Shown in pieces: positions 1 to 20,549 of a DNA stretch of 24,000 nt; positions within the stretch are counted from its first letter, which is position 1; every line of letters starts with the position of its first letter. The position numbers and the translations under genes were made by a program. Source of the stretch: Flammeovirgaceae bacterium (GTDB taxonomy: Bacteria > Bacteroidota > Bacteroidia > Cytophagales > Flammeovirgaceae); assembly GCA_965199745.1 (NCBI GenBank), contig CBDATB010000013.1, forward strand, positions 511,438 through 535,437. The letters run 5' to 3'. The notes beneath the pieces were generated by a model, which was given only the letters and a program-made list of their open reading frames with translations, was not told the origin of the DNA and searched no databases.

Positions 1-288
1 CAGATACAAGCCTGTGTCGGTGATGCCGCCACCGGGGTAATTTCTGTTGAAAATTTACTGGTCATAGGGGAGTATTTTAATATTTGGCCAAGCGAAGTAT
101 ACCTCGTAGACGTGGAACCAGGCCCCGAAGTAGCTGGCGAACAATGGACATGGGAAGTGCAGCAGTGTATCCCGCATGTAATAACTGTTATTAAAAAATT
201 GGCAACTAACGGTCCGAATGGCGAAATAAAATTGCATTTTCTCAAAGGAAATACTATATTTGACCATATATCTCACATCAATGATTAA
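1..288 (+). CDS. 3' end of a gene entering from upstream; the C-terminal region tentatively resembles a [NiFe]-hydrogenase maturation endopeptidase (HycI/HybD/HupD family)
   Basis: Frame 1 is open from base 1 to TAA at 286-288 (...ISVENLLVIGEYFNIWPSEVYLVDVEPGPEVAGEQWTWEVQQCIPHVITVIKKL...HISHIND*). By eye it aligns with the C-terminal half of the intact endopeptidase at 2152-2652 (PSEVYLVDVEP vs PPKVYILGCQS, each followed by a helix-like segment). Its stop lies 2 nt before the GTG start of the next gene. Confidence 0.45.
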   Translation, partial: QIQACVGDAATGVISVENLLVIGEYFNIWPSEVYLVDVEPGPEVAGEQWTWEVQQCIPHVITVIKKLATNGPNGEIKLHFLKGNTIFDHISHIND

Positions 289-290
289 AA

Positions 291-689
291 GTGGAAACTG
301 TAGAAAAATCAGCTCTTAGATCCCTTTTTTGGAAAGATGAAATACTTCAGGTGCTTTATTGGATGCAGGGTGAAGGCTTGGGAGAACAGGTGTCGATGGT
401 GCAAATTCTTTCATTGCTGAATACTAATGAAGATAATCTTCGGTTTCATTTGAAAAAACTCTCAGTCGATGGTGTACTGATTGCTTCAGACCCGCAAATA
501 GCCGATGACACCCTCATTCGGCTCTCACCGAAAATGTATAAAGAAGCAGGCAAGCGATTTTCCAGTGCGTTTCAGGGTTACCAAAAAACAGGACATGGTG
601 AATGCGGACCTGATTGTGAGTTTTGTTATGATGCAGACGGGCAAAAATTAGACAACTGTGTGCATAACTGTGCTACTGCAAATGAGTGA
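291..689 (+). CDS. Hypothetical small Cys-rich protein (132 aa) with a possible winged-helix-like N-terminal part; family not recognised
   Basis: GTG start tightly coupled to the upstream stop. C-terminal cysteine cluster ECGPDCEFC (C-x3-C-x2-C, Cys codons at 603, 615, 624) plus NCVHNC (C-x3-C, 657 and 669). No competing ORF. Lies on the same strand as the hydrogenase accessory operon. Confidence 0.6.
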   Translation: METVEKSALRSLFWKDEILQVLYWMQGEGLGEQVSMVQILSLLNTNEDNLRFHLKKLSVDGVLIASDPQIADDTLIRLSPKMYKEAGKRFSSAFQGYQKTGHGECGPDCEFCYDADGQKLDNCVHNCATANE

Positions 690-692
690 GTC

Positions 693-1343
693 GTGAAAGA
701 AAAATTATTCAACGATGGTGAATATATTGAAATACTGGCAAAGCTTAATGGACTTATGCGCCAGGTCGAAAATATTTCGCAGGTTGAGCATAAAGTATTA
801 ATTTACAATGTATTACAATATTTTGACTATATGCACCGAGAACCCATTACAAGGATGATGCATAGGATACAAATGGATCCGCAGCTTGAGCGTGACCTGG
901 TGAATGACAAGACGGTACAGAAGCTTTGTGAGCTTTACGATGTCAATATTGAAGCAAGTTTACCTAAAAATGCGGACTCTGCTGAATCTGAAGATGAAGC
1001 ATTTATAACAGCCACCGATATTCCGAAAAAAAAAGACTGGCTTGAATTGGGAAATTTCGATGATTTCGAAAATAAAAAGGTATACCCAAAAAATTACGAA
1101 AAAGTCAACTTCCTCATTTTGAGAATAGGCAAAGAGATATTCGCTGTAAAAAACCAATGTTATGGTTCGGTGTTGCCCATAGACATGGGAAAACTTGAAG
1201 ATCATTTTATTATTTGCCCGTGGCATGGCTGTAAATATGATTTGAAAACAGGACAAGCAGTCAACCAAGTCGGTAAACAACTGGAAATTTATCCAGTAGC
1301 AATAGTAGCCAATGGTTTAGTGAAGATAAAAATAACATATTAA
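693..1343 (+). CDS. HucE/HhyE-like hydrogenase-associated putative Fe-S protein: helical N-terminal domain plus a Rieske-type C-terminal domain with a degenerate first ligand motif
   Basis: GTG start 3 nt after the upstream stop. The C-terminus reads NQCYGSVLPIDMGKLEDHFIICPWHGCKYDLKTGQ. CPWHG matches the second Rieske box (C-x-x-H), and the two Cys are separated by 18 residues as in Rieske domains. The first box is C-Y-G rather than C-x-H. Sits in a hydrogenase operon context. Confidence 0.55.
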   Translation: MKEKLFNDGEYIEILAKLNGLMRQVENISQVEHKVLIYNVLQYFDYMHREPITRMMHRIQMDPQLERDLVNDKTVQKLCELYDVNIEASLPKNADSAESEDEAFITATDIPKKKDWLELGNFDDFENKKVYPKNYEKVNFLILRIGKEIFAVKNQCYGSVLPIDMGKLEDHFIICPWHGCKYDLKTGQAVNQVGKQLEIYPVAIVANGLVKIKITY

Positions 1344-1348
1344 GCTCT

Positions 1349-2155
1349 GTGAGAAGATTATCTGCATTGATTATAGTGTTGTCGATATTACTCGCAGCTT
1401 GTAGTCATAAAAAAGACGTAAGCAAGCATCCGATGGATAATTTGCCACAAAATGAAGCAGGGGAGGTAGTCAGGAAAGCTATTGCCTATGCAGGAGGATG
1501 GAAAAATTGGGATCAAAAAAAGAACTTTACATTTTATAAGAAAATGACTTACCTAGATAGTGCCGGAGTTGTCTCAAAAATAGTGCGGCAGCTACATGAG
1601 TATAATTTGGGTGATCTTTTTCAGGCGAACATGTCGTGGAAAGTAGATGGGGACAATTATCGTGTCATTAACAATGGGTATCAAGCAAAAAAATATTCCG
1701 ATGGGATAGAATTCACAGATCAACAGTCGAGAAATCAAGCGTGGAATTCATCGTTTGGTTCACATTATGTAATTGCCATGCCTTATAAACTGACTGACTC
1801 GGGAGCGACCTTGACCTATGAAGGGATAGATAGTACAGTCATGGGCAAACCTGTTCATGCTGTCAAGGTAACATATGCCGAAGGAATCGGAAGCTCGGGA
1901 GGAATGCACGTATGGTGGTATTATTTCGACAGAGATAATTTTGGTTTGATAGGTAATTTTTTGGACCATGGACACGGATACGTATTGACCACTTATGAGG
2001 GCTTTGAATATGTCGATAAAATCAGAATCCATAACAAAAGGTATTTCTATGAGTCTAATGAAAATAGAGAAAAATTAAGACTTGTAATTATTTATGAAAA
2101 TGAAGCAATGCAGTTTGACCGGGAACTAGATTCGGAAATATTTGAACTCAAGTGA
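1349..2155 (+). CDS. Lipoprotein of unknown function with a LolA-like or lipoprotein-sorting-like fold suspected; paralogue of 2656-3663
   Basis: GTG start. Signal peptide plus lipobox MRRLSALIIVLSILLAAC (Cys codon 1400-1402). Shares AGG..W, MP(Y/F)KLTDSG and C-terminal beta-rich blocks with the ORF at 2656-3663. Overlaps the next gene by 4 nt (GTGA). Confidence 0.7.
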   Translation: MRRLSALIIVLSILLAACSHKKDVSKHPMDNLPQNEAGEVVRKAIAYAGGWKNWDQKKNFTFYKKMTYLDSAGVVSKIVRQLHEYNLGDLFQANMSWKVDGDNYRVINNGYQAKKYSDGIEFTDQQSRNQAWNSSFGSHYVIAMPYKLTDSGATLTYEGIDSTVMGKPVHAVKVTYAEGIGSSGGMHVWWYYFDRDNFGLIGNFLDHGHGYVLTTYEGFEYVDKIRIHNKRYFYESNENREKLRLVIIYENEAMQFDRELDSEIFELK

Positions 2156-2652
2156 GTGGTACTGCAAAAATACTCATAGCCGGAGTAGGTAATGAATTAC
2201 GGCAGGATGACGCGTTCGGTATTGAGTTCGTCAGAAGGTGGAACGATACGGTGACCCACTTCGATAATGTGACGACAATAGAAGTGGGAATAGCCGGTAT
2301 TCATCTGGTACAGGAATTACATACTGGTTACGATGTACTGATTATTGCAGATGCCGTTGATTACCGAAAGAAAGCCGGTCTTATATCGATAGAAAAAGTG
2401 GAAAAGATCAGTAAGGTCGAAACTATGCCTCTGGATCAGAAAAGAGAATTCCTGGCTGATATGCATTATACCAATCCTGTCCGGGCTATGATGCTAGCGC
2501 ATGCGTTGAAAGTATTGCCGCCAAAAGTGTATATTTTAGGGTGTCAATCGAAGTGGCACGACGATTTTAATATAGGTATGAGTGATGAAGTAACCAGTGC
2601 GATACCTATTGCTATAAGTAAACTTATCGAATGGTTAGACAATGTTCAATAA
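2152..2652 (+). CDS. [NiFe]-hydrogenase maturation endopeptidase (HycI/HybD/HupD/HoxM family)
   Basis: N-terminal ILIAGVGNELRQDDAFG matches the G-x-G-N-x4-DD-x-x-G signature. IIADAVD supplies the second acidic ligand region and MHYTNP a candidate His ligand. At 166 aa the size is typical. GTG start overlaps the upstream stop. Confidence 0.85.
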   Translation: MSGTAKILIAGVGNELRQDDAFGIEFVRRWNDTVTHFDNVTTIEVGIAGIHLVQELHTGYDVLIIADAVDYRKKAGLISIEKVEKISKVETMPLDQKREFLADMHYTNPVRAMMLAHALKVLPPKVYILGCQSKWHDDFNIGMSDEVTSAIPIAISKLIEWLDNVQ

Positions 2653-2655
2653 ATA

Positions 2656-3663
2656 ATGATAAATACTATGAAAACTAAAGATCAGGAAACCACCGTACGC
2701 AAGGCTCAATCATCCAAATACATACCCTGGCTTTTTGGCCTTGAGGTTGGAGACCTTGCAAATCCTATTACCATCAGGAGGTTGAGGATTTTGCAAATAG
2801 TCGTGTTGCTGGCAATGCTATCGGGTGCCAGCTATTTACTTTGGGAAAATACATTTCGCGCTCCGACAGGAGCCGAATTGGTCAGTCAAATGGTAACCGC
2901 TGCCGGAGGCATGCAAGCATGGAATCATCTAAAATCGGGACAGTTCACCCGAACGCAGAATGTTTATGATAAGTCCGGAAAACGCCTCTCGCACCATGTC
3001 GAAACATTTTATTTCAGGAAAAATGAAAATGGCATCCAGATCATGGTCAAAGCGATAGACAGACAGGGGAAAGAAGTTGTTATTAGTAAAGACAATGAAG
3101 GATTTTGGGCAACCAAACAAGAAATACCTGCAGATCCAAAAGGTAGCTCTAAAGACCTTGGAATGATGTGTGATTCTGAATTTTGTCAGCCCGATTGTGC
3201 CGCTACAATGGCTTTTTACAGATTCTCTATGCCATTCAAACTCACGGACTCTGGCGTAAATCCCGCTGTCAACAATGTCTCTTCTTTGGGTCTATTAGAC
3301 TGGAATCCATTAGAAAATATGACCATAGAAGGCGATCCGTTGATACTGGATATTTCATTTGATCCTTCCGTAGGACGTGATAAATGGCGATTTATGGTAA
3401 ACCCTGAAACCAGCTTAATCCACAAGATAGAATACTACAATAAATCTGATTTTGGCACCTACAGACCGGAAGAGATATACTGGTCGGATCATAAAACAGT
3501 AAATGGTGTTACTTTCAGCCACCGATGGACGAAATATTGGAGCAATGGTCAGGTGATGGACGAGTATATTTATTCGGATGTATCTTTAAATAATCAGCTT
3601 GACGAAGCTTTTTTTAAAAGACCGGAAAATCTGGATTGGGTGAGTATTAATAACAATCTTTAA
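2656..3663 (+). CDS. Membrane-anchored (N-terminal signal-anchor) paralogue of the 1349-2155 lipoprotein, carrying an inserted C-x4-C-x3-C motif
   Basis: One hydrophobic helix (LRILQIVVLLAMLSGASYLLW) follows a roughly 44-aa polar N-tail. Homology blocks with 1349-2155: TAAGGMQAWN vs AYAGGWKNWD, and FSMPFKLTDSG vs IAMPYKLTDSG. The cysteine motif MCDSEFCQPDC lies at 3169-3198. Confidence 0.7.
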   Translation: MINTMKTKDQETTVRKAQSSKYIPWLFGLEVGDLANPITIRRLRILQIVVLLAMLSGASYLLWENTFRAPTGAELVSQMVTAAGGMQAWNHLKSGQFTRTQNVYDKSGKRLSHHVETFYFRKNENGIQIMVKAIDRQGKEVVISKDNEGFWATKQEIPADPKGSSKDLGMMCDSEFCQPDCAATMAFYRFSMPFKLTDSGVNPAVNNVSSLGLLDWNPLENMTIEGDPLILDISFDPSVGRDKWRFMVNPETSLIHKIEYYNKSDFGTYRPEEIYWSDHKTVNGVTFSHRWTKYWSNGQVMDEYIYSDVSLNNQLDEAFFKRPENLDWVSINNNL

Positions 3664-3675
3664 TATCTTTTTAAG

Positions 3676-4443
3676 ATGAAAATAGCAGTAGTAGGCAAAG
3701 GGGGAGTCGGTAAAACCACTGTCAGCGGAGTCATATGCAGGACTATGGCAAAAGAAGGAAGAAAGGTTTTGGCTATCGATGGCGATCCGAACCCGAATCT
3801 TTCAGCAGTCTTAGGTGTGGATAAAAAACAACCTCCTCAAAAATCGTTAAGCACCGACATCATCGAGCGGGTTCAGGATGGAGAAAGCTGGAGGTTCAGA
3901 GTAAAAATGCCCTTTGATGAAGTACTCCAAACCTACAGCCAAGATGCTAATAATGTGACCTTACTCGTAGTAGGTAAACCCGAAAAAGCCGGTACCGGAT
4001 GCATGTGTGGGTCGCATACAGTGGTGAGAGAGTTAATTCATTCTGCCCTCACTTCAGACTATCAAGCATCGATGGTGGTAGATACTGAGGCTTCACTCGA
4101 ACATATGAAACGGGGTACGTCCAAGTATGTAGAGAAAATGTACACGGTATTAGAACCCTACTATCGGTCGTTGGAAGCAGCGAGTAGATTCGCTGAGATG
4201 GCTAAAGACCTGGGTATACGTGAAGTCGCAGCTATAGGAAACAAAATAAAAACACAGGCAGAGGCAAATGCCATAAGAGAATACTGCGACAAGGAAAAAT
4301 TGCCCATAGCTATGATGGTTCCTTATGATGAAAATATTGCTGCTGCCGATCTCAAAGGAGTATCGATTGTAGATTATAATAGGGATTCCAAAGCCGTAAA
4401 AGTCATTGAAGAGTTTGTAAAGTCATTAAAATCACTCAATTAA
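3676..4443 (+). CDS. CooC-type nickel-insertion ATPase (MinD/ParA-fold P-loop NTPase, CbiA/CooC family)
   Basis: Deviant Walker A MKIAVVGKGGVGKTT. The CooC-type metal motif GTGCMCG has Cys codons at 4000 and 4006. DTEASLEHMKRGT matches the D-x-x-A-G-x-E-H-x-x-R-G block of CooC/AcsF proteins. Length is 255 aa. Confidence 0.8.
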   Translation: MKIAVVGKGGVGKTTVSGVICRTMAKEGRKVLAIDGDPNPNLSAVLGVDKKQPPQKSLSTDIIERVQDGESWRFRVKMPFDEVLQTYSQDANNVTLLVVGKPEKAGTGCMCGSHTVVRELIHSALTSDYQASMVVDTEASLEHMKRGTSKYVEKMYTVLEPYYRSLEAASRFAEMAKDLGIREVAAIGNKIKTQAEANAIREYCDKEKLPIAMMVPYDENIAAADLKGVSIVDYNRDSKAVKVIEEFVKSLKSLN

Positions 4444-4444
4444 A

Positions 4445-4693
4445 ATGTGTCTTGCTATACCGGGAAAAATATTAGCAATAGAAAAAACCGACGACGCTGT
4501 ATTTCAGATTGCTAAGGTTTCTTTTAGTGGTATCACCAAGAAGATTAACCTAGGCCTAGTCCCGGAAGCAAAAATCGGAGATTACGTACTGGTACATGTA
4601 GGAGTAGCCGTGAGTATCATAGATGAAGCTGAAGCAATAAAAACATTCAACTTTCTGCAAGGAACCGGAGAATTGGATGAGCTTTTGGAGTAA
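4445..4693 (+). CDS. hypC: Hydrogenase assembly chaperone HypC/HupF
   Basis: Canonical N-terminus MCLAIPGKI (essential Cys2). At 82 aa the size is typical. ATG starts 1 nt after the upstream stop. Confidence 0.9.
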   Translation: MCLAIPGKILAIEKTDDAVFQIAKVSFSGITKKINLGLVPEAKIGDYVLVHVGVAVSIIDEAEAIKTFNFLQGTGELDELLE

Positions 4694-4722
4694 TTCTATG
4701 CAGGTAATTGAAACCTCACCTT

Positions 4723-5385
4723 TCACCCACTCAATGCGTATGCTCCCCATCTTTGATTTTTTGGGACAAATGGGTTTAAAAGTGATTCTATCAACAAATC
4801 GAACTCCAACCGACCCGTTGGAGTAAAATACGGCAGTATCTGCGTCCATATCATCTCTTTGAAAACCCTTTCTCCACTGGTTAAACTACTCTGGTCTAAA
4901 GGTTTTGTTAAGTAAAATGTAATGATCATCCAGATGGTGTGCGCTATTATTTTGTAGTGATTCGACCTTGGTTCGCTTATCAGGATACCTTTTTTTACAT
5001 TTTGTTTAATCCAGTCATATATTTGACTTGATGTGCGTTCTGAGATTAATATTCTTTTTGAATATTGCTTTGGGTAGTTGCGTTTAATCTCCAATAAATC
5101 AATGAAGAAGAAAGAATATTTGATTAAAATATGGTAATACTTTGCCAGTTGTGTATCAAAGTCTATCAATATTGGAAACTCCTTTTTATCTGTCATAGGA
5201 TAGAGTAAGTCCGCAAGTTGATTTACTATGGATTTTATGATAGCTTCTTTACTACAAAAGTGATAAGCCAGATTTCCTACACTAATATTGGCTTCATCAG
5301 CAATGCTTTGCAGCCTGACATTAACTATTCCGCATTCATTGAATAGTCGGATGCTTTCCGCTATTATTCTTTTTTTAGTATCCAA
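4723..5385 (-). CDS. TetR/AcrR-family transcriptional regulator
   Basis: N-terminal HTH region KKRIIAESIRLFNECGIVNVRLQSIADEANISVGNLAYHF is typical of TetR_N. Length is 220 aa. The start appears to be TTG at 5385-5383, with no in-frame ATG nearby. Convergent with hypC and divergent from hypF. Confidence 0.85.
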   Translation of the reverse strand: MDTKKRIIAESIRLFNECGIVNVRLQSIADEANISVGNLAYHFCSKEAIIKSIVNQLADLLYPMTDKKEFPILIDFDTQLAKYYHILIKYSFFFIDLLEIKRNYPKQYSKRILISERTSSQIYDWIKQNVKKGILISEPRSNHYKIIAHTIWMIITFYLTKPLDQSSLTSGERVFKEMIWTQILPYFTPTGRLEFDLLIESLLNPFVPKNQRWGAYALSG

Positions 5386-5445
5386 ATTAAAAACAAGCGA
5401 TTTAGTAATACCAATAAGTAACCAAACACCCCCGAAAAGTACAAA

Positions 5446-5453
5446 TACATTTG
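5446..5453 (+). promoter_or_regulatory. Bacteroidota-type -7 promoter element (TAnnTTTG) upstream of hypF
   Basis: TACATTTG sits about 78 nt upstream of the hypF ATG. This is a motif match only. Confidence 0.3.
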
Positions 5454-5467
5454 CTTATAAGCAAATG
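5448..5467. promoter_or_regulatory. Perfect 20-bp palindrome CATTTGCTTA|TAAGCAAATG, candidate operator for the adjacent TetR regulator
   Basis: Read directly: the reverse complement of 5458-5467 equals 5448-5457. It lies in the 145-bp divergent intergenic region between the TetR gene (start 5385) and hypF (start 5531). Its left arm overlaps a TAnnTTTG motif. Confidence 0.5.
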
Positions 5468-5475
5468 AAGGAATT

Positions 5476-5495
5476 AAATATGCCACCGCATATTT
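5476..5495. promoter_or_regulatory. Second inverted repeat AAATATGC-cacc-GCATATTT in the TetR/hypF intergenic region
   Basis: 8-bp arms with a 4-nt spacer, read directly. GCATATT is also repeated directly at 5488-5494 and 5497-5503. Confidence 0.3.
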
Positions 5496-5530
5496 TGCAT
5501 ATTAAGAGTTTATTTTAATCTTGAAAACCA

Positions 5531-7786
5531 ATGAAGACATATAAAATACACCTGAGCGGACGCGTACAAGGTGTTGGTTTTCGCCCTTTTATCTATCGTT
5601 TGGCACTTGCTCATCAACTGGTGGGTAGGGTATCAAATGCTGCTTGTGGAGTAGTCATATATGTAAATACAAAAAAACCTGAGGTAGATCTTTTTCTGGA
5701 AGATGTTTTCAAGAAAAAACCTAAAGCATCATTCATTACATCACAATTGATAGAAGAAGTACCGTTTATAAAGTTCGCCGACTTCCAAATTGGTCGCTCA
5801 GAAGCTGCATCTGACATTCACATTCCACTAACACCTGACTTTGCCATTTGCAACGAATGCAAAGCCGACATTTCAAACCCAGAGAACAGGCGTTTTAATT
5901 ATGCCTTCACAACCTGTACACAATGCGGACCTCGCTACGCTATCAGTAAACAATATCCTTTTGAACGACGCCATACATCTGTCTCATCATTTCAGATGTG
6001 TTTATCTTGTGCTAGCGAATACGCTACTCCTTTGGATCGTCGCTTTCATGCCCAAACCATCAGCTGTCAGGCGTGTGGTATGCAATTGCAATTAACAAGT
6101 GTTTCTAAAAAAATACCTGAACCTGAGCAAAGGCAGGTACTGAAAAAAGTTACTGAACTGATAAAAAACGGCCACATCGTTGCTGTCAAAGGTACCAATG
6201 GCTACTTGTTGATTTGCGATGCAAAAAATACTCGTACTATTAACAGACTACGGCAAAAAAAACAACGCCCTCACAAACCTTTTGCCCTACTGTATCCCGC
6301 TATCGAACGGGTTGAAAATGATTTTTATATTTCCGAACGGGAGAAAAATACATTACAATCTGATGTTTCGCCCATAGTCATCTTGCAAAATAACAAAACC
6401 GGGACACTTTCCGAAAATATATCCCCGAATATTAGCCAAACAGGAGTGATGCTACCTTCATCGGCTTTACTTCATATTTTAATGAGTGAACTACAACAAC
6501 CCGTCATAGCAACCAGTGGAAATAGCCATGATTCACCTATTATTTCAAACCCACAAGATGCTGAAAGACACCTCGCTCACATCGCAGACTATTTTTTGCA
6601 TCACAACTTGGAAATCGTTTTTCCACAAGACGACTCACTGGTGAAATTTGCTGGTAACCGACAAATCGTCTTACGTCGTTCAAGGGGTTTAGCTCCTAGC
6701 CATATAAATATTACGGTGGCAAGCAGCCAGGCAATTTTAGCGATGGGTGCTCAACTGAAAAGTACTTTTACTTACATGCTCAACCACCATGTATATACCA
6801 GTCAATATTTCGGAAATTTAGATAATTTCTATGTATTTGAGCGTTATAGAACAACTTTGGAAAACTACTTTAAACTTTTCAAACAGTATCCGCAGACAAT
6901 CCTTACAGACACACATGAGCAATATCAGAGCAGTATTTTCGGAAAGGAATTAGCACAACAATACAATATTCCCGTTGTAAAAATTCAACACCATCAAGCG
7001 CATTTTGCAAGTGTATTGGGTGAACATCAACTTTTTAATCGAAAAGAAAAAATAATCGGTGTTGTATGGGATGGTATGGCTTTGGGAGAAGACGGGCAGC
7101 TGTGGGGAGGTGAGTTTTTTATTTATCATAGCGGTCATATGGCACGATATACTCATTTTGAATATTTTGATTGGATTGCTGGCGACAAAATGTCAAAAGA
7201 ACCCAGGCTCTGTTTATTAAGCCTTTTGAGCGAACAATCTAGGAATCATATCCGATCTAAGTTTACCGAAATCGAATGGAAAAATTATGCTCAACTGCTT
7301 AATAAAAATAAAAGCACACTGAAAACATCATCGGTTGGACGCTTATTTGATGCAGTTGCTTCCTTATTAAATCTGGTTGATTTTAATACTTTTGAAGGGG
7401 AAGCCGGCTTGTTGGTAGAAAACCTTGCCGGCACTTATACCGAAGGCGACTATATCGACTTTCTTTCGGAAGAAAGCTATCAAAAAATCCCTTCCCGTGT
7501 GTTAATACAAAAGATGCTTGACGCCCGGATGGCAGGATGTTCAATTGAACAAATAGCAGCAAGCTTTATTTTTACATTAGTCAGTTGTATTGCCGATATT
7601 GCAAAAAAACAACAGGTCAAAACCGTTGTTTGCTCAGGCGGAATTTTTCAAAATTCAGTAATTATCTCGATGCTATTGAGTGTTTTTCAAAAAATAGGCG
7701 TAGATTTGAAAACAAACCGTAACATGGCTTCAAACGACGAAAACATCTCTTTCGGACAATTAACGCATTACCTTCATACCAAATAA
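5531..7786 (+). CDS. hypF: Carbamoyltransferase HypF
   Basis: N-terminal acylphosphatase domain ([11 protein letters not shown]). Two zinc-finger pairs: CNEC...CTQCGPRY and CLSC...CQACG. These are followed by YrdC-like and Kae1-like regions. Length is 751 aa. Confidence 0.95.
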
Positions 7787-7788
7787 CT

Positions 7789-8886
7789 ATGAAATACCTG
7801 TCGGAATACAGAGACCCAGACCTCGTTAGGCAATATCTTCGGGAAATTACTAAAACAGTTACTCAGCCCTGGTCTGTCATGGAAGTTTGCGGGGGACAAA
7901 CGCATAGCCTGGTTAAAAATGGCATTATTGAAATGCTCCCCAAAGAAATTACCATGATCCACGGACCGGGCTGTCCGGTTTGTGTTACTTCATTAACATT
8001 AATAGACAAAGCTATTTATTTAGCAACTCATCAAAATACGATTCTCTGCTCGTTTGGAGATATGCTGCGAGTACCTGGTTCCAAAAAAAGCTTGCTCGAA
8101 GCCAAAGCAGAGGGAGCAGATGTACGCATTCTGTATTCTCCGCTCGAAGCCGTTAAAATTGCATCGGAAAACACTGATAAGGAAGTGATATTTTTTGCAG
8201 TAGGCTTTGAAACTACTGCCCCTGCCAACGCACTTTCTGTGGTTCATGCCTATAGTAAAGGGTTAAAAAACTACTCTATATTGGCTTCCCATGTGCTAGT
8301 ACCTCCGGCAATGGAAGCAGTGATTGCCGATGAAGAAAGCAAAATAGACGGATTCCTTGCTGCTGGACACGTGTGTACAGTAATGGGAAACTCCGAATAC
8401 TACCCCATCAGTGCAGCATACCGGGTGCCTATTGTGGTAACGGGCTTTGAACCTTTGGACATTTTACAGGGTATTCTCATGGTCGTTCGCCAGTTAGAGC
8501 AAAAGCAAGCAAAAGTAGAAAATCAATATGTGAGAATTGTACGTGATACTGGCAATACAGAGGCGCAAAATATTATCGGCGAGGTATTTGAAGTACAGCA
8601 CCAAACATGGCGTGGAATCGGTGAAATTCCCGATAGCGGCTATGGTATCAAAGCAAAATATGCAGCTTTTGATGCTGGCAAGAAATTTCAGGTAGCCATT
8701 CAGGATGCTTTAGAAAATCCTGAGTGCATTTCCGGACAAATTATGAAAGGAATTAAAAAGCCTCACGAATGTTCACAGTTTGGTAAAAAATGCACACCTA
8801 GTACGCCTGTGGGTGCTCCTATGGTCAGTAGTGAAGGAGCTTGTGCAGCATACTATCATTTTTCAAACTTGCCACAGGCTTTGTAA
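7789..8886 (+). CDS. hypD: Hydrogenase maturation protein HypD
   Basis: [14 protein letters not shown] and GFETT motifs plus a C-terminal Cys-rich Fe-S motif (PECISG...[10 protein letters not shown]...GACAAYY). Length is 365 aa. Confidence 0.95.
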
Positions 8887-8887
8887 A

Positions 8888-9948
8888 ATGACATACGATA
8901 AAAAAATAAGAATCGACCCTCACTGTCCTATGCCAAAACTGGACTTCGATATGATTACCTTGGGGCATGGAAGTGGAGGCGTATTAACTAATAAGCTATT
9001 GGACAGCAGCATTTTCGACCTGTTAAATAATGAAATCCTAAACGAACGCCAAGATAGTGCCTTTTTGAACTTAACGGGAAAAACAGCTTTTTCTACCGAT
9101 AGCTTTTTAGTGTCTCCTGTTTTTTTCCCCGGAGGAGACATCGGAGAACTCGCTATTAACGGCACCGTAAACGATTTGGCGATGTGTGGTGCTTCTCCAA
9201 AGTATATAGCCTTAAGTTTTATCCTTGAAGAAGGATTGAAGATGAGTGAATTTTGGAAAATTCTGGTGTCAATAAAATCAGCTTGTCTTCGATCGGGAGT
9301 GCAAGTTGTAACGGGTGATACGAAAGTAGTTGAAAAAGGGAAAGGAGAAAAAATCTTTATTAATACTTCCGGGCTGGGAACTGTTCATCCAAAATCTTAT
9401 ATTCATCCAAAAACGTAAAAGTTGGTGATAAGATTATTGTAAACGGAAAAATTGCTGCCCATGGGATGGCGATTATGTCTGTACGAGAGGGGCTGGAATT
9501 TGAGTCAGAAATATCGAGTGATACAAATAATCTCAACCATACGGTTATCTCACTTATCGAAAAATTTAAAAAAGATGTTCATTTTCTTACCGACCCCACC
9601 AGGGGTGGAGTAGCTACTGTTTTGAATGAACTTTGCCAAAGTTGCCATTTTGGCATCGAGCTTTTCCAAAGTACAATTCCTATTGATGAACAAGTGGCAA
9701 GTGCCTGTGAGTTGTTGGGACTTGACCCTTTATATGTAGCCAATGAGGGGCTATTTTTAAGTGTTGTACCTCACAAAATTGCCGATCAATATGTAGAAGC
9801 CTTGCAAGAAGATAATAATGGAAAATATGCTAGTATCATCGGTACTGTGGTTAAGCAACATCCGAAACAGGTTATCTTAAAAAGTAAGATAGGGGGTACC
9901 CGAATAGTCTCTATGTTGCCGGGAGAACAGTTGCCTAGGATTTGTTAA
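8888..9948 (+). pseudogene. hypE: HypE (carbamoyl dehydratase), reading frame broken by an apparent 1-nt deletion
   Basis: ATG at 8888 gives MTYDKKIRIDPHCPMP...ITLGHGSGG...FINTSGLG, then a premature TAA at 9416-9418. The -1 frame continues KNVKVGDKIIVNGKIAAHGMAIMSVREGLEFE... to the canonical C-terminus PRIC* at 9948. The shift must lie within 9382-9415, most simply in the A5 run at 9409-9413. 1061 nt plus 1 gives 354 codons. Confidence 0.85.
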
Positions 9949-11921: not shown

Positions 11922-13194
11922 ATGGATGTACTTCTGGGCTTACAATGGGGCGATGAGGGCAAAGGAAAAATAGTAGACTACCTCGCACCGAAATACGATT
12001 TAATTACCCGCTTTCAAGGAGGTCCTAATGCAGGACACACATTGGTATTTAACGGTAAAAAATTTGTCCTCCATCAAATTCCTTCCGGAGTATTTCACCC
12101 TAAAATAAAAAATGTTATCGGTAATGGCGTAGTCCTAGATCCTATAACACTGATGAGAGAAACAGAGATGCTTGCAATGAGTGGGGTGCCTGTTGTGTCT
12201 CGTCTGTATATTTCCAAAAAGGCTCACATCATTATACCGACCCACCGCTTGCTCGATGCCGCCTATGAACAACATAAAGGAGACCACAAAATTGGCTCAA
12301 CGCTAAAAGGTGTTGGTCCTGTATACAGCGATAAAATTGGCCGGCAAGGTTTGGCGTATAGGCGATATGTTACAGGCTGATTTTAAAATTAGATACCAAA
12401 GCCTAAAGGAAAAACACCTGAGAATATTAGGTGGCTATCAGCATCCTTTACATGAACTTGCCGAGCTTGAAAAGACGTTTATGAAAGCTGTTGATTATAT
12501 GAAAAACTTACAGATCGTCGATAGCGAGTATCTCCTATTTCGAGAAATTAAGCAAGAAAAGAATATTCTGGCAGAAGGTGCTCAAGGTAGCTTACTTGAC
12601 GTAGATTTTGGCTCTTATCCTTTTGTTACTAGTTCTAATACTTTTAGCGCTGCTGCTAGTGTAGGGCTAGGTATTCCTCCGCAACAAATAAAAGAAACCT
12701 TCGGTATTTTTAAGGCTTATTGCACTAGAGTAGGCAGCGGTCCATTTCCAACCGAGCTGCACAATGAAATAGGAAAAAAACTACAAGATGCAGGTAGCGA
12801 ATACGGTGCCACTACGGGAAGACCTCGCCGCTGTGGTTGGCTCGATTTGCCTGCACTAAAGTATGCCGTAATGATTAATGGCATCACGCAGCTTTTTATG
12901 ATGAAGGCCGACGTACTCAACCACTTTAAAACTCTCCGTATATGCACTAAATATCGCCTGCTAAACGGAACGCTTACCGATCAACTGCCATACGAGTTGA
13001 CAGATGAAAACATCCAACCGGTTTACCGAGATTTTGAGGGCTGGAATTGTACGCTGAATCAGGTGAAAACTTTTGAAAATTTTCCAACTCAGCTGCTCTG
13101 CTATATTAATTTTATAGAAGAACAAACCGGCGTCCCAATTACCATTCTTTCTACTGGCCCCGATAGAGAACAGACTATTTTTAAATCATCATAA
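11922..13194 (+). pseudogene. purA: Adenylosuccinate synthetase, reading frame broken by an apparent 1-nt insertion
   Basis: The N-terminal part LGLQWGDEGKGKIVD...GPNAGHT runs to ...DKIGRQGL, then terminates out of frame at 12380. The +1 frame continues RIGDMLQADF...GATTGRPRRCGWLD... to 13194. The junction is at TTGGCG (12351-12356). Removing one G restores GRQGLRIGDML. 1273 nt minus 1 gives 424 codons. Confidence 0.9.
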
Positions 13195-19695: not shown

Positions 19696-20549
19696 ATGAT
19701 AAAACTCATAGCAGACAGCGGCTCTACCAAAGCCGACTGGTCGTTGCTTAGCAAAGATGGTAATCCTTTTCATTTCATGTCTATGGGCTTAAATCCCCTC
19801 CAAACCGATGAGCAACAATTCAGGGCGATTATCAAAAAGCAGGTACTCCCCGCACTGTCTACTCAGCCGCCTAATCACATTTATTTTTATGGTGCAGGGT
19901 GCTATCAGCAGCGTACGAGTACTCTTGTACAAGATATTTTACAATCATTTTTCTTACAGGCAAATGTTGAGGTTTATACCGATTTACTCGGTGCATGCAG
20001 GGCTTTATCTGCAAATCAGAAGAGTATTGTTAGTATTTTGGGTACAGGTGCTAGCAGTTGTGTGTTCAAACGGAACAACTATTCAAGATACAAGACTCGG
20101 TTTGGGTTATGTTTTAGGCGATGAAGGTAGTGGAGCTGTTTTAGGGGAAAAATTTGCTCTCACGTTATTTGAACAATGAGCTACCGAAAGATCTTATGGA
20201 AAGCTTTTCTAAACAATATAATATCGAAAAAGATTCAGTGCTAGAAAGGGTATATCAGAAGAATAAACCTAATCGGTATTTGGCGTCTTTTGCCCTGTAC
20301 TTACATCAAAACCGACAAAAACCTTATGTAGCTAATTTGTTAGTAAAAAATTTTCAGCAGTTTTTTGAAAAATATATTTTTTCAATACCCAATTATTCGC
20401 AATACGTATTTCATTTTACGGGTTCTATTGCTTATAACTTCTCAGAAATATTACGAAAACTCATGGACACCTACACGTTAAAAACAGGAAAAATTTTGCA
20501 GTCACCTATTGAGGGTTTAAGTGTATTCCATAGCAGATTTTACCGCTGA
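19696..20549 (+). pseudogene. BadF/BadG/BcrA/BcrD-type ATPase, i.e. a GlcNAc or MurNAc kinase-like sugar kinase (MurK-like by context), with two frame disruptions
   Basis: The N-terminus MIKLIADSGSTKADW is an actin-fold phosphate-1 motif. ILGTGASSCVF jumps to NGTTIQDTRLGLGYVLGDEGSGAVLGEK in the +1 frame, at the A3 run 20068-20070. It jumps again to LLSRYLNNELPKDL... at the A5/T3 runs 20148-20155. 854 nt minus 2 gives 284 codons. Adjacent to murQ. Confidence 0.8.

Follow-up and report, generated by a model that had tools for sequence, protein, structure and literature searches.

CooC1 of C. hydrogenoformans and CooC of R. rubrum carry out the ATP-dependent insertion of nickel into the C-cluster of nickel-containing carbon monoxide dehydrogenase (Ni-CODH). 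For [NiFe]-hydrogenases, to our knowledge, current accounts treat HypA through HypF as the universal machinery of cofactor assembly. CooC and HypB have a common overall SIMIBI architecture (PMC9164220). Here we describe the gene for a CooC-family ATPase that lies among hydrogenase maturation (hyp) genes in a 24,000-nucleotide stretch of DNA from a Flammeovirgaceae bacterium (assembly GCA_965199745.1, contig CBDATB010000013.1, positions 511,438 to 535,437 of the forward strand; hereafter “the window”). We found that this ATPase accompanies group 1l [NiFe]-hydrogenases (Hyl) in multiple phyla, in gene clusters that contain neither hypA nor hypB. From sequence comparisons, we lean with moderate confidence toward a role as the ATP-driven nickel insertase of the group 1l hydrogenase, where it would most likely do the job of HypB. 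A hydrogenase role for a CooC-type protein is given neither in the papers on group 1l nor in two reviews, one on NTPase metallochaperones from 2022 and one from 2025 on the biosynthesis of the [NiFe] cofactor, which makes no mention of CooC (PMC12134894), nor in a 2026 survey of CODH operons.

The ATPase bears all three motifs that the initial annotation of the window had read in it: a deviant Walker A motif (G7-K-G-G-V-G-K-T-T15), a G-x-G-C-x-C motif (G-T-G-C109-M-C111-G, with the codons TGC ATG TGT for C109-M-C111), and a D-x-E-A-x-x-E-H-x-x-R-G sequence (D136-T-E-A-S-L-E-H-M-K-R-G147) within the switch II block, which extends to T148. A phmmer search against PDB sequences identified CooC1 (3kje) as the top match (E 7e-32, residues 1-231) and MinD as the second best (E 2e-10), and the HMMER alignment pairs C109 and C111 with C112 and C114 of CooC1 (GTGCMCGSHT versus GSQCYCRENS). 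Pfam assigned only general MinD/ParA-class domains (CbiA, E 4e-18), and no specific NCBIfam model matched. We modeled the protein with AlphaFold2 from 51 homologues (pLDDT 88), and Foldseek again placed 3kje first (TM-score 0.77, 30% identity), followed by FlhG, ParA, NifH and MinD. The CxC loop (residues 104-109) is disordered in this model, as would be expected of a site that takes shape upon dimerization only.

In 52 orthologues from hydrogenase clusters, the invariant residues include G7, K8, G9, G10, G12, K13, T14 and T15 of the Walker A motif, D35 and D37 of switch I, G108, C109 and C111 around the CxC motif, and D136, E138, A139, E142, R146, G147 and T148 of switch II. The N189-K190 pair is also invariant, as is C204, a cysteine with no equivalent in CooC1. 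Because they are invariant in 52 orthologues, these motifs are not there by chance. A Walker A motif of the deviant type that has the signature lysine, and a CxC motif aligned to Cys112 and Cys114 of CooC1 are the hallmarks of the CooC/AcsF group (COG3640), and both phmmer against the PDB and Foldseek show the ATPase to be closer to CooC than to other MinD, ParA, NifH, ArsA or Mrp proteins. Overall, by sequence, motifs and predicted fold, the ATPase belongs to the CooC/AcsF (COG3640) branch within the MinD-type ATPases.

The gene cluster around the ATPase gene could be identified by its order. The window opens inside a conserved open reading frame (ORF) of about 188 codons, which follows hylL in related genomes, and from this ORF to hypC it is collinear with L001, L004-L013 and other loci that have hylS, five small ORFs and hylL. 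The window itself starts after hylL, which would place hylS, five genes for transmembrane (TM) proteins and hylL upstream of it. Two long contigs (L001 and L002) hold the complete cluster, in the order hylS, five ORFs of about 95 codons, hylL, the 188-codon ORF, a 131-codon ORF, and genes for a Rieske protein, a DUF6503 protein, a protease, a 332-residue protein and the ATPase, then hypC, a TetR gene and hypEDF. This order equals the published Hyl arrangement, in which TM genes separate hylS from hylL and the Rieske protein is named HylE (Ortiz et al. 2020/2021), and by this measure the window most likely holds the downstream portion of a [NiFe]-hydrogenase cluster of group 1l. A supplementary figure of hydrogenase neighborhoods in the same work draws “CbiA” and “PadR” genes without comment and without assigning them a role (Ortiz et al.). 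Close homologues of the ATPase, at 66-80% identity, are numerous in Saprospiraceae, Cyclobacteriaceae and Flavobacteriales.

To survey the spread of the gene, we scanned one genome per species with an alignment of HylL and kept 80 loci with 10-kb flanks, from Bacteroidota, Alphaproteobacteria, Gammaproteobacteria, SAR324, Chloroflexota, Calditrichota and Entotheonella, including H. roseosalivarius and Marinovum algicola. As HylL was the only query, the ATPase had no influence on which loci were retrieved; it was detected afterwards by phmmer of the window’s proteins against all six-frame ORFs. The ATPase gene is present in 36 of 58 Bacteroidota loci, and in 36 of the 38 that reach at least 5 kb beyond hylL. 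Twenty of the 22 negative loci end less than 4.5 kb after hylL, short of the expected position, and the other two are L046, where the cluster is broken after hylL, and L058, from H. roseosalivarius. Twelve of 14 alphaproteobacterial loci, both SAR324 loci and one of four gammaproteobacterial loci also have the gene.

The position of the ATPase gene within the cluster varies with lineage: Bacteroidota have it beside hypC, Proteobacteria immediately 5′ of hylS, and SAR324 past hypE. These three placements indicate that the gene stayed with the cluster through rearrangements. Moreover, across 50 loci the pairwise divergence of the ATPase follows HylL divergence (Pearson 0.95, Mantel p 0.001), a correlation of which shared phylogeny alone would yield a part. 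In all of the roughly 116 examined loci with the ATPase gene, it lies beside hydrogenase or hyp genes or on a contig too short to tell, and within the five ATPase loci annotated with Pfam (L001, L002 and L084-L086) we found no Prismane/CODH gene. Since the gene accompanies the hydrogenase in several phyla, diverges in step with HylL and has no CODH neighbor in those five loci, a function in hydrogenase maturation is likely, and an annotation as a CO dehydrogenase factor unlikely. In the gene contexts surveyed, the ATPase departs from the CooC/AcsF family, which is associated with cooS or acsB.

The initial annotation had also seen neither HypA nor a HypB-like GTPase in the window, and our searches bear this out. 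No ORF of the cluster (291-9948) matches PF01155 or PF02492 in Pfam or NCBIfam searches, with Pfam also run on ten larger ORFs further downstream in the window. E. coli HypA and HypB gave a best E of 5.6 against the window by tblastn and no phmmer match among all its six-frame ORFs, and a motif search detected no HypA-like MHE...CxxC...CxxC ORF in it. The same two queries matched nothing in any of the 80 group 1l loci. At the level of the gene cluster, no hypAB pair stands beside the structural genes in these 80 loci or in three more distant hydrogenase loci. The HypB query did pick up, at E 1e-30, an 85-residue remnant of HypB on a metagenomic contig (L103), and we therefore judge the HypB search to be sensitive. 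As a contrast, 662 examined gene rows around group 1h hydrogenases in Table S7 of Ortiz et al. include rows for HypA and HypB, and just two for “CbiA”.

The ATPase is not itself a divergent G3E GTPase: it has no PF02492 match and no similarity to E. coli HypB, and its N189-K190 pair lacks the D that would complete an NKxD motif. Its gene does adjoin hypC as closely as first described, with a single base (4444) between the TAA stop codon (4441-4443) and the hypC ATG at 4445.

Every hydrogenase-linked orthologue carries the CxC motif or an apparent UxC in its place. The two SAR324 genomes have TGA as the codon for the first cysteine, and the reading frame continues beyond it. A metagenome scan with the SAR324 protein gave 62 loci, 46 of which (within L087-L145) have TGA at exactly this position, and never TAA or TAG. 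Among the TGA forms are 36 distinct proteins of full length, with identities of 35-100% and with conserved motifs on either side of the TGA. A hairpin lies 16-36 nt past the UGA, with a five-base loop containing GU, and two of its pairs covary (UA/CG/UG and AU/GC) through synonymous or compensated codon changes. Counted over 19 diverse sequences with a manually defined helix, 79% of cells are paired, compared with at most 44% for shifted-partner controls, and none of 500 shuffles reaches the observed covariation. RNAalifold alone detects weak structure after the UGA, and single-sequence folds of the SAR324 post-UGA region are no better than shuffles.

An in-frame UGA at a cysteine position, conservation downstream of it and a SECIS-like hairpin are standard bacterial signatures of selenoproteins, and they argue that the TGA at the first cysteine of the CxC motif probably encodes selenocysteine (Sec, U), which would define a seemingly new selenoprotein family. 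We found no description of a Sec-containing CooC in the literature searched. The exchange of Cys for Sec implies that the first cysteine of the motif is chemically essential, and the Sec variants offer a natural probe of the metal site. Gene callers split the Sec-type genes, and the database representatives P0196, P0213 and P0244 begin at the Met right after the TGA.

A second gene accompanies the ATPase with similar constancy. Its 132-residue product, which we call p132, has a winged-helix-like N-terminal domain and a tail with the pattern H-G-E-C-x3-C-x1-2-C...C, the window’s copy ending ...C...H. Homologues of p132 are encoded in 50 of the 51 genome loci that have the ATPase. In actinobacterial-type and Sec-type loci the p132 gene directly follows, precedes or overlaps the ATPase gene, an arrangement seen in 44 of 65 metagenome-type loci, only 33 of which carry 400 bp or more of flanking sequence on each side. 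In Proteobacteria, p132 ends in His-rich stretches (HEHHHH, HDHHNHAHG) that resemble the tails of nickel chaperones. Searches of the PDB and Pfam with a p132 profile gave only weak winged-helix matches (MarR/HTH_27), with no HypA-like match, no Pfam family and no solved relative, and AlphaFold without an alignment was uninformative (pLDDT 46). By analogy with HypA, CooJ and CooT, p132 could be a metal-binding partner of the ATPase, or else a nickel sensor.

The hydrogenase large subunit carries a CxC motif of its own. All 82 HylL sequences have a 22-residue extension after DPCxxCxxH that ends in an invariant T-T-C-A-C-G-[IVL]-x, which puts the CxC in the part of the precursor that is cleaved off. 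As far as we know, the large-subunit tails of E. coli are without cysteine. We speculate that the HylL tail CxC serves as a docking or hand-off element for the CxC chaperone. Two neighborhoods link the ATPase/p132 module to nickel through transporter-like genes: L103 encodes a permease with a NiCoT-like HX4DH signature, and in L086 a Nik/Opp-type ABC transporter follows the ATPase gene. The HypB remnant of L103, a C-terminal piece with no P-loop, comes after a Sec-type ATPase and p132.

Table 1. Positions of the genes and sequence features discussed in the text, in the window and in the compared loci.
Feature	Locus	Position	Strand	Remarks
3′ part of conserved ~188-aa ORF after hylL	Window	1..285	+	phmmer E 6.5e-36 to the 188-aa protein of L001; synteny with L001 and L002
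p132, winged-helix-like N-domain, Cys/His-rich C-terminal tail	Window	291..689	+	132 aa
HylE, Rieske-type [2Fe-2S] protein	Window	693..1343	+	PF00355 E 2e-9
DUF6503 protein	Window	1349..2155	+	PF20113 E 2e-6; lipoprotein-like signal sequence
Hydrogenase maturation endopeptidase, HupD/HyaD type	Window	2152..2652	+	PF01750 E 2e-15; TIGR00072 E 5e-27
Second DUF6503-like protein	Window	2656..3663	+	335 aa; weak PF20113; immediately 5′ of ATPase gene; kept in Bacteroidota loci
CooC-family ATPase	Window	3676..4443	+	ATG start, 255 aa; main feature
Deviant Walker A, G7-T15	Window	3694-3720	+	
C109-M-C111	Window	4000-4008	+	
D136-G147	Window	4081-4116	+	
Switch II block, D136-T148	Window	4081-4119	+	
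C204	Window	4285-4287	+	
hypC, Fe(CN)2CO chaperone	Window	4445..4693	+	PF01455 E 2e-25; begins MCLAIPG
TetR-family regulator	Window	4723..5385	-	PF00440, PF13972; same position in Bacteroidota clusters
hypF	Window	5531..7786	+	TIGR00143 E 2e-198
hypD	Window	7789..8886	+	TIGR00075 E 6e-149
hypE	Window	8888..9948	+	Frameshifted near 9406-9415 (homopolymer nearby); AIRS and AIRS_C on separate ORFs; tblastn frame 2 to frame 1
purA	Window	11922-13194		Split into two ORFs
Third split gene	Window	19696-20549		Split into two ORFs
hylL	L001	4170-6044		CxC on cleavable tail of precursor
p132	L084	10752-11117		
p132	L085	10803-11159		
p132	L086	10910-11245		
ATPase, TGA at first Cys	L062	12860-13741		SAR324
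ATPase, TGA at first Cys	L063	19347-20201		SAR324
TGA codon, example	L101	4687		Metagenome scan
TGA codon, example	L112	1090		Metagenome scan
C-terminal HypB remnant	L103	2585-2842		85 aa
Permease, NiCoT-like	L103	2836-3537		
Nik/Opp-type ABC transporter	L086	12264-17492		
COG0523/CobW-type GTPase	L073	4830-5843	-	
COG0523/CobW-type GTPase	L077	4890-5867	-	
COG0523/CobW-type GTPase	L080	5024-5968	-	
COG0523/CobW-type GTPase	L072	5128-6090	-	Also in 7 other proteobacterial loci
Region without CooC-like gene; membrane protein and aminopeptidase follow	L058	16043-21878		H. roseosalivarius
Additional genes of actinobacterial-type cluster	L084	11101-13016, 14996-17258		
Additional genes of actinobacterial-type cluster	L085	7805-9987, 11149-12119		
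FmdE-like or zinc-ribbon protein	L086	17629-18414		
FmdE-like or zinc-ribbon protein	L102	268-648		
FmdE-like or zinc-ribbon protein	L112	2257-2493		

The remaining genes of the window’s cluster are listed in Table 1. The two DUF6503-type genes bracket the protease gene and are restricted to Bacteroidota clusters and a few metagenomic Sec-type loci. The frameshift in hypE reflects either an assembly error or a pseudogene. Downstream of hypE lie unrelated housekeeping genes, among which the essential purA and a third gene are likewise each split by a frameshift; this suggests that all three splits stem from indel errors in long-read assembly, and not from decay of the cluster.

We also followed the ATPase family beyond the group 1l clusters. 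A search of 50%-identity cluster representatives with the ATPase returned 69 clusters at E <= 1e-30, and a profile of the wider set retrieves proteins named from Solirubrobacterales and Thermoleophilaceae. The contexts of three distant relatives (38-41% identity; L084-L086) were viewed. Each is a hydrogenase cluster that lacks both HypA and HypB, and each has a large subunit that shares 50-62% identity with HylL and carries the same tail. Because all three distant contexts are hydrogenase clusters, the association with hydrogenases, as judged from gene neighborhoods, is one that spans a large part of the ATPase family and extends beyond one phylum. The CooC-like paralogues of L127, L128 and L144 were set aside as a separate subfamily that has lost the CxC motif and has no hydrogenase genes nearby. 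In a neighbor-joining tree of 146 sequences with 200 bootstraps, the Bacteroidota sequences group with 100% support, and those of Proteobacteria with SAR324 with 80%.

Several of the compared loci contain further genes. The actinobacterial-type clusters (L084 and L085) add a PadR regulator and one or two extra CbiA/ParA paralogues, one with a CPCC motif and one without cysteine. In the same regions, the genes for a MoxR-type AAA ATPase and for a VWA/CoxE-like protein recall the accessory genes that go with aerobic CO dehydrogenase. Near the ATPase gene, L086, L102 and L112 encode FmdE-like or zinc-ribbon proteins (CxxCGE...CxxC).

If the ATPase is a nickel insertase of the group 1l hydrogenase, its cycle may be envisaged as follows. 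ATP binding would close the ATPase homodimer, as is established for CooC1 and MinD-type ATPases, and the two C109-x-C111 loops would come together where the subunits join and bind one Ni(II) between them, as the corresponding loops do in CooC1. p132 may either supply the ATPase with nickel or receive nickel from it, by analogy with HypA-HypB and with CooJ or CooT and CooC. ATP hydrolysis would then free the nickel into a large-subunit precursor that already bears Fe(CN)2CO from HypCDEF, and the CxC motif of the 22-residue HylL tail might, more speculatively, dock the chaperone or accept the metal. Finally, the HupD protease would take off the tail; endopeptidases of the HupD/HyaD type are established to cut the C-terminal tail of the large subunit once nickel is inserted. 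In this scheme we infer the metal to be nickel, as well as the direction of its transfer and the roles of the partners. A bolder version, which we entertain only tentatively, is a self-contained nickel-insertion system in which the C/U-x-C ATPase, p132 and a CxC “handle” on the HylL tail replace HypA and HypB altogether; here the Sec forms would be a new family of selenoproteins in which Sec ligates nickel in the chaperone.

The suggestion in the initial annotation that the ATPase is the nickel insertase of the hydrogenase thus gains from its constant linkage to the hydrogenase, the lack of hypAB in the clusters and the retention of the CxC motif, and it is set back by two complications, a COG0523 GTPase in Proteobacteria and the missing ATPase gene of H. 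roseosalivarius. These and a few further points weigh against a nickel-insertase role. In 11 proteobacterial loci, a G3E GTPase of COG0523 (GFLGAGKTT, CxCC, His-rich) is encoded divergently to the CooC-like gene, and two Granulosicoccaceae loci have a COG0523 GTPase and a MerR-like gene (with a Cys-rich C-terminus) and no CooC-like gene. The COG0523 GTPase could be the true HypB analogue in Proteobacteria, and its presence means that the CooC-like protein need not be the sole or final nickel donor. Its occurrence in the place of the CooC-like gene also supports the idea of a “metallochaperone slot”. No COG0523 gene was found in the Bacteroidota clusters surveyed, the window included.

H. roseosalivarius oxidizes H2 with a group 1l enzyme and is the only host with demonstrated activity (Ortiz et al.). 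No CooC-like gene lies within 10 kb of its hylL, and a membrane protein and an aminopeptidase are encoded where its relatives L048, L049, L051, L056 and L057 have the ATPase gene. Among the 120 closest matches of a Cytophagales-type orthologue, in a database where about a quarter of the proteins are named, none carries a Hymenobacter name. Given the H. roseosalivarius cluster, the ATPase gene may be dispensable or replaceable. Further, our searches for hypA and hypB covered the gene clusters, and copies elsewhere in the host genomes may serve the group 1l enzyme. The neighbor-joining tree sets the wider hydrogenase-linked set (52 sequences, without CooC1) apart with 62% bootstrap support, and its support for a single clade of all group 1l-linked ATPases is weak, at 35%. 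We do not claim strict monophyly of the group 1l-linked ATPases, which this tree does not robustly resolve. Lastly, the CxC/UxC motif could bind another metal or an Fe-S cluster, or take part in redox chemistry.

This last point leads to the alternative that survives best, which we nevertheless consider rather unlikely: that the ATPase is a hydrogenase maturation factor of another kind, either a carrier of Fe-S clusters or other metals, as NifH or Nbp35/ApbC are, or an ATP-dependent thiol-redox chaperone that keeps cysteines of the precursor, in its active site or its tail, reduced in aerobic cells. Nickel would then arrive by way of COG0523 or SlyD-like proteins, or unaided. In favor of this alternative, the fold of the ATPase matches NifH and ParA/MinD about equally once CooC1 is left aside, and the proteobacterial clusters encode a separate COG0523 GTPase. 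Sec is a nickel ligand in [NiFeSe] hydrogenases, and it sits most often in redox-active sites, so the existence of UxC variants leaves the redox possibility open. HylS, in addition, has an unusual four-Cys proximal cluster (Supplementary Note 1, Ortiz et al.). However, the motif of the ATPase is a CxC at the nickel site of CooC1, rather than the CxxC of Nbp35/ApbC or the two separated cysteines of NifH. Its constant partner p132 has tails rich in His like those of nickel proteins, nickel transporters adjoin the ATPase gene in L086 and L103, and the Bacteroidota clusters manage without a COG0523 gene.

We regard as improbable a positioning or assembly role without any metal handling, in which a MinD/ParA-like ATPase would target or anchor the cytosolic HylSL dimer to the HylTM proteins of the membrane, or regulate the cluster together with p132. 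The fold and the deviant Walker A motif are common to MinD, FlhG and ParA, p132 has a winged-helix-like domain, five small TM proteins are the predicted docking site of group 1l enzymes (Ortiz et al.), and R. rubrum CooC is described as having been purified as a membrane-associated protein. Such a role would leave the invariant CxC motif, its Sec replacement, C204 and the Cys/His-rich tail of p132 unexplained, and L084-L086, which have no interposed TM genes, still encode the ATPase. Very improbable, finally, is that the ATPase matures a Ni-CODH or acetyl-CoA synthase encoded elsewhere and sits in the cluster incidentally: CooC1 is its best solved relative and many homologues are named “CO dehydrogenase maturation factor” by JGI, but the ATPase is only about 30-35% identical to CooC1, its linkage to hylSL and to hyp genes persists despite rearrangements in Bacteroidota, Alphaproteobacteria, Gammaproteobacteria, SAR324 and actinobacterial-type contigs, the five Pfam-annotated loci hold no CODH gene, CooC normally lies beside cooS in CODH operons (2026 CODH-operon survey), and the hosts are aerobic heterotrophs drawing on atmospheric H2 (group 1l papers).

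Should the ATPase and p132 indeed deliver nickel, they would represent an undescribed route of nickel insertion into a hydrogenase, of the kind known from nucleotide-driven nickel chaperones. The label “CO dehydrogenase maturation factor” in aerobes would then mislead surveys of CO metabolism. We know of no group 1l enzyme that has been produced heterologously or solved structurally, and both genes would probably be needed for recombinant expression. In Antarctic desert soils, group 1l enzymes are reported to outnumber all other hydrogenases and to be the dominant H2 scavengers, and they occur commonly in seawater (Ortiz et al. and group 1l literature).

Comparison with known systems places the ATPase as follows. 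The Hyl cluster of H. roseosalivarius keeps the same order after hylL (the 188-codon ORF, p132, HylE, DUF6503, HupD and DUF6503) but is without the ATPase gene. The COG0523 GTPases (CobW/ZigA/Nha3) resemble the ATPase as nucleotide-dependent metallochaperones with a Cys motif, but belong to another family, use GTP, carry CxCC and are absent from the Bacteroidota clusters. The ATPase-type HypB of T. kodakarensis (Mrp/MinD) puts a MinD-class ATPase in place of the GTPase HypB; unlike the window’s protein it is archaeal and works with HypA. The initial annotation had invoked this Thermococcales protein, and it stands as a functional precedent rather than as a relative: no chain named HypB is among the 32 PDB sequence matches (E <= 1e-3) or the top 50 fold matches of the ATPase. 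This result points to different MinD-class branches, and bacteria and Thermococcales would thus have recruited MinD-class nickel insertion to their hydrogenases separately.

The GTPase HypB, with HypA, would share the proposed job of the ATPase, the nucleotide-driven delivery of nickel to the large-subunit precursor before C-terminal cleavage. The ATPase gene also lies among hyp genes and adjoins hypC, as hypB does in many operons. In contrast to HypB, the ATPase has a deviant Walker A motif instead of a G3E GTPase fold, no detectable sequence similarity and no HypA at its locus. CooC1 (PDB 3KJE-3KJI) is nearest in build, with 254 residues against 255, a MinD-type deviant Walker A motif with Lys8, an aligned CxC and a common switch II sequence, D-x-E/G-A-x-x-E-H-x-x-R-G-T. 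The two differ in identity, at about 30-35%, and in setting, as genes of the window’s type lie in [NiFe]-hydrogenase clusters of aerobes and not beside cooS. Moreover, the hydrogenase-linked ATPases have the additional Cys204, a partner of the p132 type instead of CooJ or CooT, and Sec variants in many lineages.

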